A stretch of DNA of 64,000 nt, from the NCBI GenBank assembly GCA_035536655.1, contig DATLNR010000134.1, forward strand, positions 34,846-98,845, read 5' to 3'. The DNA comes from Casimicrobiaceae bacterium (GTDB lineage: Bacteria; Pseudomonadota; Gammaproteobacteria; Burkholderiales; Casimicrobiaceae). The position numbers and the translations under genes are program-made. The notes below the pieces were generated by a model. The model searched no databases and was not told the DNA's origin. It saw only the letters and a list, made by a program, of their open reading frames with translations. This document shows, in pieces, positions 56,851 to 64,000 of the stretch (position 1 is its first letter; every line of letters starts with the position of its first letter).

Positions 56851-57315
56851 TTACTTCCGGCGGGCGCGGTAGGCGTCGATCGCGCGTTCGAGATCCCTGA
56901 GCTCGTCGCAGGGGAGGAGGCAGATCGTCTTCAAGGCCGCCACATGTCGCTCGGCGCCCGCGACGTCGCCCACGAGCAGGTAAGTCTCGCCGATGTATTC
57001 GTGCGCGCCGCGGTGCCGCGGGTCGAGCTCGATCGCGCGACGATAGTGCTTGAAAGCAAGGTCGAAGTCGCTAAGGTTGCGGTAGGCGAAACCCAGCATG
57101 TTCTGCAGATCGGCGTGCTCGGGATGGCGCAACTCGGCGCGCTTGAATCGGCGCACCGCCTCCGGCCATGCCTTGCCGTCGACGGCCTGCTTGCCGGCCG
57201 CATAGTCCTCGTCACGCGCAGCGAGATCCGGATCGGCTTCGTACGGGTCGGCGGTGGCGAGCGGCGCGAAAGCGACGATCGCCGCGCACACCAGACCCGA
57301 CAGGAACCGCCTCAC
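56851..57315 (-). CDS. Secreted tetratricopeptide-repeat protein
   Basis: Signal peptide; TPRs (NMLGFAYR...Y.RAIELDP.HRGAHEYIGE); C-terminal CLLPC. Confidence 0.85.
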   Translation of the reverse strand: MRRFLSGLVCAAIVAFAPLATADPYEADPDLAARDEDYAAGKQAVDGKAWPEAVRRFKRAELRHPEHADLQNMLGFAYRNLSDFDLAFKHYRRAIELDPRHRGAHEYIGETYLLVGDVAGAERHVAALKTICLLPCDELRDLERAIDAYRARRK

Positions 57316-58901
57316 CGTTGCGCGAGCTTCTTTGCGCTGACCAACTCTGGCCGCGCCGTGTCCGCATCTTTCGCGAGCACAACGAGCCTGCCGTAATAAC
57401 CCGCGGCCTTGGCGCTGTCGCCGCTCATCTCGGCGGCACGCGCGGATCCCAGGTAGTTGCGAAAGCGGTTCGGCTCGCGGACTTGCGACGCCTCGAACTC
57501 CTTCAGCGCCGCTTGCGCCTGCTTCATCTCGAGCAGCATGTCGCCCAAGAGCTCACGCGCCGGTACGATGCGGCCCGGCGTGACAATGTGCTTTTCATTG
57601 CGATCCTCGAGATCCGCCGCCGCTCGCATGAACCTGAGCGCATCGTCGGGCTTGCCTTCGCCCAGCGCGATCCATCCGGCAGTGGCCAATCGCTGCACCT
57701 CGACTTCGGTCGCCCAATAAGTGTTCTTCGCGTCCAACAGCGCCTTGTGCATCGATTCGAGCTGCTCGGCGTCCTTGCGTGCCGCGGCAACGTCGCCGCT
57801 ACGCGCCGCACCGAGCGCCCGCGCGAAGTGCGTGATGGCCTCGACAAACGGATACGCCGTGCCCGGCGGCTGAAGGGCGGCGGCTTCCTTCCACGCGCCG
57901 CGTTCGACCGCATAACGCGCCGGCATTGCGGCGATCGCATACGGGGCGATGAAACGCGGGCTGATGCCCGCGACCTTCATCGCCTCGCCGATCATCCGCC
58001 GCGCTTCGGCATCGCGGGCGAGCTGCAGATAGGCGTACACCATATAGTCGACCGCGTGGTAAGCCTCGTCCGCCTCGTTGCCGGCTTTGGCGACTTCCAT
58101 CGATCGCTTGTTCGTCGCAGCGGATTCCTGCCATGCGCCCACGCGCGTGAAGATATGCGAGGGCATGTGTAACGCATGCGGCGCGGCCGGCGCGATGCTT
58201 GCGTAACGGCGCGCTGCGGTAAGGCCCTTTTCGGCGATCGGCGGGGCGTCGTAGCTGTGGATCAGGTAATGCGCAACCCCCGGATGATCCGGGTACTTGA
58301 TGAACTGCGCCTCGAGGATCGAGGCGGCCTTGAGATACGCCGCATAGCTTTGATCGGCCTGGGTCTGCGTTCCCGCGATGTACAGCGCGGAAAAGATCTG
58401 CGCTTCGTCGTCCGTCGGAAAGCGTTGCGCGAGCGCCTCATAGGCTTTGGCCCGCGCGTTCTGGCGATCGCGCTCGGAACGCGTCGAAAAGTTTTCGTAG
58501 TACGTCGCGACCGCTTCGATGTAGGCGCGTTCGCGCTCGGTCTTCGCGCCGATGCGTCGTGCGTCCGCAATGGCCGCCTGCGACTGCTCGGCGCCCTTTG
58601 CCGACGCGCCCTGTCCCGCGAGCGGATTCGACATCAGGATCGACGCGACGCCCCAGTGCGCGATCGCGCATTGCGGGTCCTGTTTCAAGACGTCGCGGAA
58701 CGCCTGCTCGCCTGCCGAGTACCAGAACGAATGCAGCATGGCGACCGCGCGTTCGAATGCAGGCTGGACCTTCGGGTCACAACTCGTTGCGAACGCAACC
58801 TTGCCCAGCGGACCGCTTTGCGAATCGGTGTCGTGCCCATGCGCCGCGGCGTTGATGCCGAGCGCGAGAACCAAAGCAAGTTGAAGCGTGCGGCGGTTCA
58901 T
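57312..58901 (-). CDS. Secreted His-rich helical-repeat protein of unknown function
   Basis: GGAG RBS, signal peptide, LGKVAFATSC...AVAMLHSFWY, HPGVAHYLIHSYD, PHALHMPSHIF. Confidence 0.85.
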   Translation of the reverse strand: MNRRTLQLALVLALGINAAAHGHDTDSQSGPLGKVAFATSCDPKVQPAFERAVAMLHSFWYSAGEQAFRDVLKQDPQCAIAHWGVASILMSNPLAGQGASAKGAEQSQAAIADARRIGAKTERERAYIEAVATYYENFSTRSERDRQNARAKAYEALAQRFPTDDEAQIFSALYIAGTQTQADQSYAAYLKAASILEAQFIKYPDHPGVAHYLIHSYDAPPIAEKGLTAARRYASIAPAAPHALHMPSHIFTRVGAWQESAATNKRSMEVAKAGNEADEAYHAVDYMVYAYLQLARDAEARRMIGEAMKVAGISPRFIAPYAIAAMPARYAVERGAWKEAAALQPPGTAYPFVEAITHFARALGAARSGDVAAARKDAEQLESMHKALLDAKNTYWATEVEVQRLATAGWIALGEGKPDDALRFMRAAADLEDRNEKHIVTPGRIVPARELLGDMLLEMKQAQAALKEFEASQVREPNRFRNYLGSARAAEMSGDSAKAAGYYGRLVVLAKDADTARPELVSAKKLAQR

Positions 58902-59190
58902 CTGTTCTCCTGTCCGATAAAGCGAAGTGACTGCCACTACTGTGCGCGCAAGCCGCCGAAGACGTCAAACATGCTGAATACGTAAGGGTCGGCGCGTTTA
59001 CATCGATTCTAACGGCAGGCGCGGTAAACGCGATCGTTCACGATGAAGAACGTAATCGGCGGTGCAAAGGCGACAGAGGGCAGGCGTTCCCGGCGAGTCG
59101 AGGCAGCCTGTGCCGCAGATCCCGCAGCGATAAATCGAAAAAACTCACGTGCGCGCCTTGCGCCCGCTGCGTGTTGTCAGGAGCGCCCTC

Positions 59191-59322
59191 GCCGAACGAC
59201 TTCCCAGGATAACCGGTCCGTGTATGTGCGAACAGCGCATCGACGAAGTTCTGCATCGCCTCAGAAACGTAGCGCCGCGGATCCCATCCGGCCTGCATCC
59301 ACAGCCCGAGCACGCGGCCGTT
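59191..59322 (-). pseudogene. Possible LysR-type regulator C-terminal fragment
   Basis: NGRVLGLWMQAGWDPRRYVSEAMQNFVDALFAHTRTGYPGKSFG resembles the end of an LTTR effector domain; no HTH or upstream part is present. Confidence 0.4.
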
Positions 59323-59390
59323 CTGGGCTGTTCCCCGAGAAGCCATCGACGAAAGCCTAGTTGAATCGATCGAGATAGGCACCTCCACCG

Positions 59391-60869
59391 CTAGGCTTGG
59401 AGAGTGCTAGCCGCCCTCCAACTATCGATTTGAGCCGGACGACCGCTCAACAACCCGGCAATGACACTTGCAGTCTGCGGAAGCATGCAGGTAAAGCGCA
59501 CGTGAGCGGAGTCGTCGACATTGCTGCCACTTCCGACCACCTTGCCGTAAAGGCAGGTCGTGTGATCCGACGAGCCGTCCGAATCGAGGTAGATCGCAAT
59601 GTTGGTAAGGGGCCGCACCGCGCGAGTCGTGACGATCTCGGCCGCCTTGCTCGACAACTTCGTAACGCTCGCCGCGAATCTCTCTTCGCTCACGGATTTT
59701 TCGTCGACGACGGCGCAGGTCACAGCCACCGGCTGGGCCAAAGGTTGCAGCATGTCGGAGTAGTGCGGCAGGAAGGAGTTGTAAGTACCCGCTATCCCCC
59801 CGACTTCGTACACGGTGACCGGCTGCGGCACGCCCTTCGGATGGACGATCATCTGGCCATCCAGTCTGACGATCGCGCCCGCGTGCAATAGCGTCGCTTC
59901 GGATATCAGGATCTGGTTCCCGCACGAGTACGACTCGATGCGCGAGGCGAGATTGATATGCTTTCCCACGACACTGTACTTCGAACGTGTCTCGGAACCG
60001 ATGTTTCCGACGATGGCTTCGCCGGTATGTATGCCGACGCCCATCGAGAGCTCCGGCAAGCCATGGATCTGGTTGTACGCATTGACCGCTTCCATCGCCT
60101 TCTGCATGGCGACGGCACAGCCGATGGCACGCTGCGAATGATCGGGCTGTTCGTTCGGCGCTCCGAAGAATGCGAGCATGCCATCGCCGATGATCTCGTC
60201 GACGATACCGTGATGATCTGCGATGATCCTGGTCATCGCCCCCAGGAAGTTGTTGAGCATTTGCACGATCTGAGCCGGCGTGAACGGGCCTTCCGAGATC
60301 AACGTGAATCCGCGCAGATCGGCAACGAGGGCAGTCACGGTGCGCAGCTCGCCACCAAATTCGAGCGCTTCCGGCGATTCCAGCAACTTGTCGACGACCT
60401 CGTTCGCGACGTAGCGTCCGAAGACCTTCCGGATCAGCGTGTTGCGCGCTTCGAGCTGCGACGTCAACGTTCTCGCTTCGTCCGAAACGCGCTTGAGCGC
60501 GAGCTGGGTTCGCACCCGCGCCGGCACGACGACGAGATCGAGCGGCTTCATGATGTAATCGTTGGCGCCCATCTCGAGCGCGCCGGCGATGTCCTCGGAT
60601 TCCCCTCTTGCCGTCACCATGATGACCGGCAGCTCGGTCATCGAATAGGTCTTGCGGATGAGCTGAAGAACGGCCACGCCGTCGATGCCCGGCATTTCTA
60701 TGTCGAGGAGAACCAGGTCGAACTTTCGTTCCAGCAGCTTGTTGAGCGCGGCCTGCCCGTTCTCCGCAACGATCACTTCGTGGCCCTTCCGGACCATGCG
60801 TCGCGACAAGAGATCTCGATTCATCTCATTGTCATCGACGATGAGCAACGTTCCGCCAGGAGGGGTCAT
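59391..60869 (-). CDS. Receiver domain plus class III nucleotide cyclase
   Basis: REC (LIVDDN, LLDIEMP, MVTA, YIMKP); cyclase VADLRGFT, DEIIGDG, GIHTGEAIVGNIGS, NLASRIES; extra C-terminal beta domain. Start overlaps the upstream stop (ATGA). Confidence 0.93.
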   Translation of the reverse strand: MTPPGGTLLIVDDNEMNRDLLSRRMVRKGHEVIVAENGQAALNKLLERKFDLVLLDIEMPGIDGVAVLQLIRKTYSMTELPVIMVTARGESEDIAGALEMGANDYIMKPLDLVVVPARVRTQLALKRVSDEARTLTSQLEARNTLIRKVFGRYVANEVVDKLLESPEALEFGGELRTVTALVADLRGFTLISEGPFTPAQIVQMLNNFLGAMTRIIADHHGIVDEIIGDGMLAFFGAPNEQPDHSQRAIGCAVAMQKAMEAVNAYNQIHGLPELSMGVGIHTGEAIVGNIGSETRSKYSVVGKHINLASRIESYSCGNQILISEATLLHAGAIVRLDGQMIVHPKGVPQPVTVYEVGGIAGTYNSFLPHYSDMLQPLAQPVAVTCAVVDEKSVSEERFAASVTKLSSKAAEIVTTRAVRPLTNIAIYLDSDGSSDHTTCLYGKVVGSGSNVDDSAHVRFTCMLPQTASVIAGLLSGRPAQIDSWRAASTLQA

Positions 60870-61243
60870 GGGTTCCTTGCCGCTTGCAGGAGCAGTTGAA
60901 TCTTGTCGATCAGTCGCTCGATCTCGACCGGTTTGGTGTCGTAATCGTTGCACCCCGCCGCGAGCGCTCGTTCTCTGTCGCCCTGCATGGCATGCGCGGA
61001 GAGACCCAGAATCGGCAGCTCGCGCGTTCGAGGGTCGGCCCGAATGCGACTGGCGACTTCCAGACCATCCAGGACAGGGAGGCTGATGTCCAGCAGCAGC
61101 AGGTCCGGGGGATCGGTCCTGACCCTTTCGATGGCCTCCTCACCGTTCGTCGCCACCGTGACTCGATAGCCGCGCCGCACCAGGCGGCGGAGCAGCATGT
61201 CGCGGTTCAATTCGCTGTCTTCGACAAGGAGGATCTTGCTCAT
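60866..61243 (-). CDS. Single-domain response regulator (CheY/DivK-like)
   Basis: ILLVED, LLDISLP, GLSAHAM, YDTKP. Confidence 0.93.
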   Translation of the reverse strand: MSKILLVEDSELNRDMLLRRLVRRGYRVTVATNGEEAIERVRTDPPDLLLLDISLPVLDGLEVASRIRADPRTRELPILGLSAHAMQGDRERALAAGCNDYDTKPVEIERLIDKIQLLLQAARNP

Positions 61244-61342
61244 CGTCGAGCCGCCGCTTTGACCAAGACCCATCGCCGATGCGTGATGGAGGCCCCGTCG
61301 TTCATGGCTTTGCTTCGATCATCAGCGTGACGCGTCGAAAGG

Positions 61343-64000
61343 TCATGCGCCTAACGCCGCCTCGCGCACGCGCTCGATCGAAGTGGTCATTTCCCGCAAC
61401 AGGGCGTCGCGGCTCAAAGTGGACTTTGCGATGATCGCCTGCACATGCTCGTTCAGACGAACCAGCTCTTCGCGAGTCAGATCCTTGGCCGTCAGGACGA
61501 CGAGCGGAATCGTTTGCCACTCCGCATGCTTGCGTAGCTCATCGATGAACTCCAGTCCGTCCATCACCGGCATGACGAGATCGAGCAGAATGATCTCGGG
61601 CGGCTCTTGCTCGGCGAGAATGTCCAGCGCAACGCGTCCGTTCTCGGCCTCGACGACCGTCCAGCCCTCCCTGGCGACCATTCGGGCGATCATGGCCCGT
61701 GAGTTATCGTCGTCCTCAATCACCAACACCCTGCCGTGCGGAGTGTTCGAACAGTGCTTTCGCACGATGGCGAGCAGCCGCTCGCGATCGATCGGTTTCG
61801 TCAAGTAGTCGGCGGCACCCAGCGAATAGCCGATGTCCTTCTCGTCCAAAATCGTTACGACGATGACCGGGATATCCGCTAGATCCGGGTCCGCTTTCAG
61901 TTCAGCCAGCACCGTCCAGCCGTCCAGGCCCGCCATCATCACATCGAGCGTGATCGCGGTAGGATGAATCTGCTTCGCCAGCTTGAGCCCGCTTTCGCCG
62001 TTCGGTGCTGACACGGTCCGGAAGCCGTCCTTCGACAGGAACCGGCTGATGATTTCTCGCGTGGATGCATCGTCGTCGATGACGAGTACCGTGCGCTTCA
62101 CCGTGTGTTCATCATCTTCGACGGCCGGCGTCGAACGCGCATCTTGGCCGCGCGAAGGGCTTCCTTCGGCAATCTCCGACGGCAACCAGACCGTCAATTT
62201 CGTCCCCTGTCCCAACTTGCTTTCGGCTTCGATGTGTCCCCCCATCATTTCAGCAAAGCGCTTGCAGATGGCGAGGCCGAGACCCGTGCCGCCGTATCTG
62301 CGTGATGTGGACACGTCCGCTTGGGAGAACTCCTGAAACAGGTGCTGCATCTGTTGCGGGCTTATCCCTATTCCGGAGTCCTGCACGACGAAGCTGAGCC
62401 AGCGTTTTCCGGCCTTGACGACTTCGCTGACAGTCAGCGAGACGGAACCGCTTTCGGTGAACTTGCCGGCATTGCTCAGGAGATTGAGCAGAATCTGCCG
62501 CAGCTTCGTAACGTCGGTTCGTATGGGCGCAATGTCCGCCTGACAGACGACCGAGAGAATGTTGGCGTTCTTCTCGACGAGCTGGCGCACGGTCACTTTC
62601 ACGTCGTTCACCAGCGACGCCACGTCGACCGTCTCGACGTATCGCTCCATCCTTCCCGCCTCGACCTTCGACAGATCGAGGATGTCGTTGATCAGGGACA
62701 GCAAGTGATTGCCCGACGAATGGATCTTCCTGAGATCGTCGATGAGCGACTTGTCGGCGGACTCGTCACGTTCTTCGATCAGCATCTCGCTGTAGCCGAT
62801 GATCGCGTTCAGCGGCGTGCGCAGCTCGTGCGACATCCTCGCCAGGAATTCGGACTTGTGACGCGTTGCCTGCCTCAGCCTTTCGTTGACCTCCTTGAGC
62901 TGGTCCTGTTGCATTTGCAGCTCCGCCGTGCGCGCTGCAACCTTCTGCTCGAGGCCTACGTTGAGCTGCTCGATCTGGCGGTATCCCGAAGCGTTGGTCA
63001 TCGCTACAGCGAGCTGGCTGCATAGCGTCGACACCAAGCTCAGATCGGCGTGGGTCAGCGATCTGGCGAGACTTTCGACCACCACGATGCCGAGCGTGCG
63101 ACCCTCGAACTTCACCGGCGCGGCCAGGAACGAGCGAGCATCGAGGAGTCGGGCCATCGGCAACGGAATCTGCGACGTCGCTTCGGCGGCATCCGCTACC
63201 AAGAGCGGCTCGCCCTTCAAGGCGACGGTAGCGAACATCCGGCCTGCTCGTGCCAACGGAAACTCCAGATCCCGCAGCGCGTCTTCGAGGGGCTGCGATG
63301 ATCCGCCCGCCACCCTTCCATCGACCAGCGCCTGCTTTTCCTCGTTGTAACGAAAAAACGTCGCCCGGTCATAGCCCAGCCGGCCCACGACCGCCTGAAG
63401 CGTCAGCTGGATCAGTCTTTCCTGATCCAGCGTCGAGCTCATGTCGATCCCGATGTCATGCAGCGTCGACAACTCGGCCAGGCGCCGATGCTGCGCATCG
63501 GTCATCGTGGACAACGATTCCGTCATGTGATTGAAGGCGGTCGCGAGGACGCCGATCTCGTCCTGAGATCGGATCGGCACGCGCTGCGATAGATCGCCGC
63601 GCGAGATACGCAGTGCGGCTTGCGCCATCGCGCGGAGCGGCTTGACGATGTGATCGACGCCGAAGAACGATACGACTTGTGCGACTCCCACGATCACGAG
63701 TGTCAGCAAGATGCCGCCGAGCAGCGTCCTGCGGATCTTGTCGATCACGCTCTCGGACGACAACAGCATTTGCACGTTTCCGTGCGGAATGATCGTTTGC
63801 TGATTCTCGTCGGGCGTCGACATGCTTGCGCCCAGCAGCGCCAGCTCCGACGAAAGGCGGGTGGCGGTTCCACCGCGAATGGTTTGCACGTTCGCGAACG
63901 TGTGATAGATGCCGATACCATCGATCAGGTGATGGGCGATGAACGGCTTGTCCCATGCCGGATCGACGTTCGTGATTCGTCGGAAGCTCTCGGCGACCAA
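61343..64000 (-). CDS. Hybrid sensor histidine kinase (TM-HAMP-GAF-HisKA-HATPase-REC-REC), 5' end outside the window
   Basis: HAMP (DEIGVLATAFNHM), GAF, MSHELRTPLNAIIG, NLLSNAGKFT, DSGIG, GGTGLGL, and two receiver domains (TLDVMM, LLDLVM). Confidence 0.95.
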   Translation of the reverse strand: MVAESFRRITNVDPAWDKPFIAHHLIDGIGIYHTFANVQTIRGGTATRLSSELALLGASMSTPDENQQTIIPHGNVQMLLSSESVIDKIRRTLLGGILLTLVIVGVAQVVSFFGVDHIVKPLRAMAQAALRISRGDLSQRVPIRSQDEIGVLATAFNHMTESLSTMTDAQHRRLAELSTLHDIGIDMSSTLDQERLIQLTLQAVVGRLGYDRATFFRYNEEKQALVDGRVAGGSSQPLEDALRDLEFPLARAGRMFATVALKGEPLLVADAAEATSQIPLPMARLLDARSFLAAPVKFEGRTLGIVVVESLARSLTHADLSLVSTLCSQLAVAMTNASGYRQIEQLNVGLEQKVAARTAELQMQQDQLKEVNERLRQATRHKSEFLARMSHELRTPLNAIIGYSEMLIEERDESADKSLIDDLRKIHSSGNHLLSLINDILDLSKVEAGRMERYVETVDVASLVNDVKVTVRQLVEKNANILSVVCQADIAPIRTDVTKLRQILLNLLSNAGKFTESGSVSLTVSEVVKAGKRWLSFVVQDSGIGISPQQMQHLFQEFSQADVSTSRRYGGTGLGLAICKRFAEMMGGHIEAESKLGQGTKLTVWLPSEIAEGSPSRGQDARSTPAVEDDEHTVKRTVLVIDDDASTREIISRFLSKDGFRTVSAPNGESGLKLAKQIHPTAITLDVMMAGLDGWTVLAELKADPDLADIPVIVVTILDEKDIGYSLGAADYLTKPIDRERLLAIVRKHCSNTPHGRVLVIEDDDNSRAMIARMVAREGWTVVEAENGRVALDILAEQEPPEIILLDLVMPVMDGLEFIDELRKHAEWQTIPLVVLTAKDLTREELVRLNEHVQAIIAKSTLSRDALLREMTTSIERVREAALGA

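Follow-up and report, generated by a model that had tools for sequence, protein, structure and literature searches.

The 64,000-nucleotide stretch of Casimicrobiaceae DNA considered here (the window; contig DATLNR010000134.1, positions 34,846 to 98,845) encodes a protein that joins a receiver domain to a class III nucleotide cyclase. Judging from its sequence, this receiver-cyclase is probably a guanylate cyclase activated by phosphorylation. It combines a Cya2-type core, the input of a receiver and the triad Glu-Lys-Ser, and does not represent a new kind of enzyme. A first-pass annotation of the letters had proposed phosphorylation-controlled cGMP output; a complete receiver, a core of the Cya2 type and a place inside the Cya2-type clade support that proposal at the level of sequence. 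The gene is the last of five on the same strand, some of them beyond the window end, which encode a porin-like protein, a periplasmic binding protein, a hybrid kinase, a single receiver and the receiver-cyclase. Its open reading frame (ORF) is intact, with the ATG at 60869 and the stop at 59391-59393. The 492-aa product is built, in order, of a receiver, a long helix with an FGRY transducer motif, the class III cyclase and a tail with a PilZ fold, and its full-length AlphaFold2 model has a mean predicted local distance difference test score (pLDDT) of 85.8. The gene and the catalytic features discussed first are the following.

59391..60869, minus strand: receiver-cyclase gene (whole), 492 aa plus stop (ORF with translation, Pfam, AlphaFold2 full-length model)
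59772..60362, minus strand: class III cyclase catalytic domain of the Cya2 type, residues 170-366 (phmmer against the PDB, Pfam PF00211, tree)
60195-60197, minus strand: Glu225 codon GAG (plus strand CTC), the purine-specifying position, equivalent to Cya2 Glu488
59973..59981, minus strand: Lys297-Tyr298-Ser299, Ser299 being the second specificity position, Cya2 Gly562 (sequence and alignment to 2W01)
59940..59954, minus strand: Asn306-Leu-Ala-Ser-Arg310 (NLASR), equivalent to Cya2 Asn569/Arg573, with Ser309 in place of Cya2 Tyr572

Which purine does the catalytic domain select? Pfam assigns residues 176-327 to Guanylate_cyc (PF00211) with 85 bits against a cut-off of 21.9, and a phmmer search of the PDB with residues 170-366 finds Synechocystis Cya2 (2W01, E=1e-55) and a phytochrome-Cya2 fusion carrying E488K (6FHT, E=2.5e-64). 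Glu225 aligns to Glu in the former and to Lys in the latter. The 2W01 chain reads "tidefmgdg" where the receiver-cyclase has "ivdeiigdg", so that both the IVDEIIGDG motif with its GAG codon and the DEFMGD precedent in Cya2, which the annotation had cited, are correct. Work of Etzl et al. showed that Cya2 is GTP-specific and that the single exchange E488K switches it to an adenylate cyclase, each form being specific for its own substrate (PMC5995499); the annotation's rule that Glu selects GTP and Lys ATP has a direct precedent at the residue to which Glu225 aligns. A published residue table gives the catalytic residues of Cya2, including Glu488 (PMC6005667). Cya2 D448, R450, E488 and D492 correspond to D184, R186, E225 and D229 of the receiver-cyclase, and G562, N569, R573 and K608 to S299, N306, R310 and K345, which leaves Gly562 (here Ser299) as the sole non-identical one. 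The metal-binding pair Asp184 and Asp229 is present, as are the transition-state residues Asn306 and Arg310; the Asp pair and the NLASR motif at 306-310 had thus been read correctly as intact, and so had KYSVVG at the second specificity site (residues 297-302). In a 68-sequence alignment of the family, D184, R186, D229, N306, R310 and K345 vary little or not at all, even in relatives as distant as 46% identity, Glu225 is conserved in at least 90%, K297 is invariant and Y298 nearly so. K297 aligns with the Lys of KYG in Cya2.

Several points weigh against a guanylate cyclase under phosphorylation control. The second specificity position has Ser299 and not Gly, and Rauch 2008, as relayed by PMC6005667, PMC4215837 and PMC7384201, gives the Gly562 position a steric role. 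Lys297 is taken by inference from the alignment to be the supporting lysine of Cya2, and this reliance counts on the same side. The Tyr that lines the guanine pocket of Cya2 just before the catalytic Arg (NLTYR) is Ser309 here; according to Rauch 2008, in the form cited by PMC4215837, Tyr572 greatly enhances the turnover of GTP and not of ATP. Further, class III specificity arises in catalysis and not in binding, and two residues are insufficient for its full prediction (PMC7384201; Ma1120 mutants, PMC4215837). The literature yielded no enzyme assay for any receiver-fused member of the family. On the side of the signal, no Hpt (histidine phosphotransfer) domain was detected in the operon that could carry phosphate from the hybrid kinase, and neither the operon nor its flanks contain a gene for a cyclic nucleotide (cNMP)-binding protein or a phosphodiesterase.

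Could the enzyme then be an adenylate cyclase, or one of dual specificity, despite Glu225? We regard this as unlikely. Two determinants specific to Cya2, Gly562 and Tyr572, are missing and replaced by Ser299 and Ser309, the lost Tyr being the one reported to boost GTP turnover specifically; engineered Glu-bearing variants of Ma1120 are of mixed preference (PMC4215837), and databases label the relatives 'adenylate cyclase', which is an automatic name. Glu is nonetheless the main determinant, because its exchange for Lys is enough on its own to make Cya2 an adenylate cyclase (PMC5995499), and in the structure of RhGC with GTP only the Glu forms a guanine-specific hydrogen bond (PMC7384201). In the accounts of PMC6005667, PMC4215837 and PMC7384201, Glu bears most of the specificity and the second residue works through its shape; Ser is among the residues found at that second position in guanylate cyclases (Cys or Ser in the eukaryotic ones), and Glu-Ser pairs are listed among them. 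Nor is the loss of the Tyr peculiar to this protein: most relatives have S, G or A at the Cya2 Tyr572 position, and Tyr is kept only in a cyanobacterial Glu-Lys-Gly subgroup. Of 29 locus-derived cyclases that were tabulated, 11 have a Ser just before the catalytic Arg, as eukaryotic guanylate cyclases do too.

The genome itself offers a further argument. Its assembly (3.8 Mb) holds 16 matches to the class III cyclase profile, and none of the 13 other cyclase domains that were aligned has Glu at the position equivalent to 225. In seven of these paralogs the position is occupied by Lys, as is typical of adenylate cyclases, and in the others by H, A, Q, S or R; none pairs Glu with a Lys two positions ahead of the second specificity site. 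Since Glu is missing from all 13, Glu225 is a specific departure and not background variation.

Outside the genome the picture is reversed. A protein database search in which 8,000 candidates were scored returned more than 4,400 relatives, nearly all of them receiver-cyclases and nearly all with Glu. Among the 120 best matches, 113 have Glu at position 225, and the triads at 225/297/299 are Glu-Lys-Gly in 85, Glu-Lys-Ser in 20 (the receiver-cyclase itself included) and Glu-Lys-Ala in six. Named sources include Tectomicrobia, Vicinamibacteria, Binatia, Acidobacteria and Gammaproteobacteria, and many of the longer members bear an N-terminal HisKA hairpin. Where do these proteins belong among class III cyclases? 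A maximum-likelihood tree of 85 catalytic domains was made by a quick procedure; some of its outgroup branches are long, and only the starred groupings are to be relied on. It places the receiver-cyclase in a Glu-Lys-Ser clade of 16 rows (Shimodaira-Hasegawa-like approximate likelihood-ratio test, SH-aLRT, 99), itself within a clade of 32 rows made up of receiver proteins with Glu-Lys-Ser or Glu-Lys-Ala (99). The larger receiver clade has the cyanobacterial CHASE2 clades as neighbours, and all of them fall in a Cya2-type clade of 75 rows (SH-aLRT 99), which leaves out nine of the ten same-genome paralogs on the tree, the tenth (L111) being a long branch of unsure placement. Ser at the second specificity position also occurs in one cyanobacterial CHASE2 form (L123). 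Among the cyanobacterial CHASE2-cyclases L122, L128, L120, L124, L125 and L127, some have an Asp-Glu-Thr triad and others Glu-Gln-Thr, and because both occur in the cyanobacterial Cya2-type clade, specificity residues evidently vary even among close relatives of Cya2.

One relative has neighbours of its own. In a Polyangiaceae metagenome-assembled genome (MAG), a protein of 44% identity (L013:2870-7410) is a HisKA-receiver-cyclase with Glu-Lys-Gly. The two genes directly 5' of it encode a cNMP-binding cyclase with Lys and a Ser/Thr protein kinase with a C-terminal cNMP-binding domain. This kinase is laid out like a cGMP-dependent kinase, and its stop overlaps the start of the cyclase gene; a hybrid Cache-HAMP kinase lies 3'.

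How would phosphorylation reach the catalytic site? The N-terminal third of the protein comprises these features.

60531..60851, minus strand: receiver (REC) domain, residues 7-113 (Pfam PF00072, 97 bits; (beta-alpha)5 fold in the AlphaFold2 model)
60363..60530, minus strand: linker, residues 114-169 (secondary structure of the model)
60411-60422, minus strand: FGRY motif of the transducer element, residues 150-153, with F150, G151, R152 and Y153 invariant in 68 relatives

Pfam matches Response_reg to residues 9-115 with 97 bits, and NCBIfam returns receiver-domain matches only, all below cut-off. The acidic pocket Asp12/Asp13, the phospho-acceptor Asp56 (codon at 60702-60704), Thr86 and Lys108 are present and invariant across the family alignment, and the receiver reads as complete, with every residue needed for phosphorylation in place. 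In the model the last receiver helix runs on as a single helix over residues 114-150, followed by the short helices of the transducer element, the cyclase and then the barrel. Homodimerisation of class III cyclases is textbook knowledge, and the modelled helix-transducer arrangement is the one commonly used to pass a signal along a dimeric helix to such a cyclase. FGRY has been named as the conserved motif of the cyclase transducer element (PMC5995499).

The C-terminal end of the protein was less readily assigned.

59448..59747, minus strand: C-terminal PilZ-fold beta-barrel plus helix, residues 375-474 (AlphaFold2, Foldseek, Pfam matches of homologs)

Pfam finds no match for residues 368-492 of the receiver-cyclase, and the fold was therefore established through homologs and structure prediction. 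An AlphaFold2 model of residues 361-492, made with the 68-sequence alignment, has a pLDDT of 83 and shows six strands followed by a helix. In a Foldseek search of the PDB the best 28 matches are all PilZ domains (Alg44, BcsA, VCA0042, MapZ and YcgR), with E down to 4e-4, probability 1.00, TM (template modelling) scores of 0.5-0.68 and sequence identities of 10-16%. Of 67 homologs, 26 match Pfam PilZ (PF07238) at E<=1, the best at 6.7e-7. The annotation's suggestion of a PilZ-like C-terminal domain thus stands for the fold, but not for the motifs that bind cyclic di-GMP (c-di-GMP). RxxxR is not in the tail of the receiver-cyclase and is missing from 65 of the 68 aligned sequences. Only three of the 68 retain the Asp/Asn of D/NxSxxG; Lys takes its place in most others and in the receiver-cyclase, whose second PilZ motif reads KLSSKA. 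On these two motifs, the tail was rejected as a canonical c-di-GMP receptor.

What, then, is the tail for? Residues 170-492 were searched against 200 cyanobacterial genomes and matched about 50 ORFs, most of them of 740-790 aa, from the cyclase start to around residue 470; two of these tail-spanning matches proved to have a CHASE2 domain plus cyclase, as in the architecture of Cya2. With BLASTP, the tail alone matches the C-terminal ~110 residues of two cyanobacterial CHASE2-cyclases at E=1e-13 and 1e-5, the better match covering residues 625-737 of a 745-aa protein. The comparison was made on CHASE2-cyclases with the architecture of Cya2 and not on the Cya2 sequence itself. Because the C-termini of these cyanobacterial proteins match the tail alone, the alignments mark it as an ancestral part, and the standard C-terminal module, of Cya2-type cyclases. 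Cya2 fusions that lack the C-terminal extension are almost inactive (Etzl et al., PMC5995499), which suggests by analogy that the tail supports catalysis.

A further proposal, which would add to phosphorylation control and not replace it, makes the tail a working nucleotide sensor that gates the cyclase on binding c-di-GMP or its own product cGMP. The requirement for the extension in Cya2 fusions (PMC5995499) would fit such a sensor. So would the clearly PilZ-type fold, which Pfam recognises at E=6.7e-7 in some relatives, and the retained xLSxxG/A core of the second PilZ motif. Both binding motifs are nevertheless lost across nearly the whole family, and not every PilZ-fold domain binds c-di-GMP, so we consider a sensing tail quite improbable. 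A reading in which c-di-GMP or the cGMP product is bound by the tail, or else by the kinase's GAF domain, and in which the operon forms a closed loop of feedback or cross-talk between phosphorelay, cGMP and c-di-GMP, is equally much of a long shot. Were this true, the tail would be an allosteric module common to all Cya2-type cyclases.

The putative cognate kinase of the receiver-cyclase is the hybrid kinase encoded alongside it, directly upstream together with the single receiver.

60866..61273, minus strand: single-domain receiver, 135 aa, translationally coupled to the cyclase gene (Pfam PF00072, 93 bits)
61343..64000, minus strand (start ~345 nt past the window end): hybrid histidine kinase, 1000 aa (Pfam on the part in the window plus the full ORF, L091)

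At 60866-60869 (ATGA) the cyclase ATG and the stop codon of the preceding receiver gene overlap, AAGGAA lies ~6 nt upstream of the ATG, and this start agrees with the N-termini of homologs in the 68-sequence alignment; for these reasons the coordinates 59391-60869 are taken as correct. The longest possible ORF would begin with a GTG at 60953 and overlap the upstream gene by ~90 nt. A scan of 58800-61500 for promoters and terminators found no site. The hybrid kinase has HAMP, GAF, HisKA, HATPase, REC and REC domains. Directly upstream of it lie the genes for a Phenol_MetA_deg porin-like protein (502 aa) and a PF04392 periplasmic binding protein (347 aa), beside which there are no ABC permease or ATPase genes; the pair occupies L091:7201-9822, just past the window end. 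The genes for kinase, receiver and receiver-cyclase overlap or abut, and their order is kept in two relatives (L011 and L012): the hybrid kinase gene is conserved in both, and the single-domain receiver gene is at the same place in both. All five genes have the same order in the two closest genomes, of an uncultured beta proteobacterium (81% identity) and a Casimicrobiaceae MAG (79%). The lack of adjacent ABC genes and the preservation of the arrangement in L012 suggest a co-sensor role for the PF04392 and porin-like pair and not one in transport.

Downstream, a 116-aa ORF at 59038-59388 on the minus strand begins 3 nt after the cyclase stop; it has no family match, there is no terminator-like site nearby, and it may be spurious or the remnant of a gene. 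Further on, two apparently secreted TPR-repeat proteins (541 aa and 154 aa) are encoded at 56851-58937, again on the minus strand, with no evident link to the cyclase operon.

That the protein is catalytically silent, a phosphate sink or scaffold in the relay whose cyclase domain serves for dimerisation only, is very improbable: the operon does have four receiver domains for one kinase and no detected Hpt, and degenerate cyclase domains are known in other proteins, but here all catalytic residues are present, and their conservation across relatives points to selection on catalysis.

It seems reasonable to picture the preferred phosphorylation-activated guanylate cyclase at work as follows. A signal would be sensed by the hybrid HAMP-GAF kinase, perhaps together with the neighbouring porin-like and periplasmic binding proteins, and phosphate would pass from the kinase to Asp56 either in one step or through a relay. 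The single-domain receiver, whose gene stands between those of kinase and cyclase, is likely to compete for this phosphate or to hand it on. The change would travel through the dimeric helix and the transducer element to the cyclase homodimer and raise the conversion of GTP to cGMP. Glu225, backed by Lys297, would select guanine, with the small Ser299 leaving room for it, while the tail is probably needed for catalytic competence and not for binding c-di-GMP. Who would read the cGMP? The reader would not be encoded nearby. The genome encodes six cNMP-binding proteins, namely two CRP-like regulators, an MscS-type channel and an Na+/H+ exchanger (both with C-terminal cNMP domains), a stand-alone domain and a DUF294 protein. 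The two regulators, the channel and the exchanger are the candidate readers. The annotation had advised a search for CRP-like cGMP receptors; two CRP-like regulators do exist, but like the other four proteins they are on other contigs, none beside the gene. The stand-alone cNMP domain adjoins another cyclase on contig C113.

How widespread is the gene? An ortholog was present in one of 24 same-genus genomes in a first draw and in none of five in a second. Among 400 other genomes of the same order, 10 have a match to the Cya2-type cyclase plus tail at E<=1e-45, and only one of these 10 has a close ortholog, of 78% identity and in a different family (G455:C1:1407956-1408870, L133). The gene is rare and patchy in its order. 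Because an ortholog of 78% identity sits in another family while nearly all same-genus genomes are without the gene, lateral transfer or repeated loss is suggested. A literature search for betaproteobacterial guanylate cyclases found nothing relevant. The counts from the order support the rarity in Betaproteobacteria put forward in the annotation, but the protein belongs to a very large family of receiver-cyclases.

As a single instance this is a sound yet unsurprising prediction; its interest comes from that family, which counts thousands of members in soil and sediment bacteria that databases label as adenylate cyclases. Bacterial cGMP signalling rests on few assayed enzymes (Cya2, GcyA and GuaX). 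Proof that one member makes cGMP when phosphorylated would tie two-component systems directly to cGMP output in many phyla and allow a large number of genes to be re-annotated. The Glu-Lys-Ser subgroup in particular would test the weight of the second specificity residue and of the Cya2 tyrosine, as well as the role of the PilZ-fold tail.

How does the receiver-cyclase compare with known systems? With the PilZ receptors of c-di-GMP (Alg44, BcsA, YcgR and MapZ) its tail shares the six-stranded beta-barrel followed by a helix, but it differs in having no RxxxR and a Lys at the D/N of D/NxSxxG. GuaX (XC_0250) of Xanthomonas campestris and GcyA of Rhodospirillum centenum are, like the enzyme predicted here, bacterial class III domains making cGMP. 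They are atypical, with Ala at a substrate-specifying position and Leu and Ala in place of the transition-state Asn and Arg (PMC3770947); they have no receiver, and GuaX carries TPR repeats, whereas the receiver-cyclase has the canonical catalytic set and no close relation to them. Assignment to the GuaX/GcyA type was rejected, as the Asn-Arg pair missing there is present here. The 2c-Cyclop proteins of Chlamydomonas and Volvox (Cop6/Vop6) are alike in placing a phosphorylatable receiver directly upstream of a class III guanylate cyclase, and phosphorylation of their receiver Asp was shown to be required for guanylate cyclase activity (PMC6284317), an experimental precedent for the control proposed here. 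They differ in being eukaryotic, in uniting rhodopsin, histidine kinase, receiver and cyclase in one chain with light as input, and in a cyclase that is not of the Cya2 subtype, for which no PilZ-like tail is reported. Cya2 (sll0646 of Synechocystis sp. PCC 6803; 2W01), the only cGMP-producing enzyme of bacteria with a solved structure, shares the homologous catalytic core (E=1e-55) with an FGRY transducer element before it, the same Glu, the Lys two positions ahead of the second specificity site, the metal Asp pair, the Arg, the Asn-Arg pair and the Lys; a PilZ-fold C-terminal extension is common to the receiver-cyclase and to cyanobacterial CHASE2-cyclases of Cya2 architecture and length. 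The differences are Ser299 against Gly562 and Ser309 against Tyr572 in the catalytic domain, a cytoplasmic receiver as input against a CHASE2 domain with transmembrane helices, and as host a betaproteobacterial lineage (Casimicrobiaceae) against a cyanobacterium.

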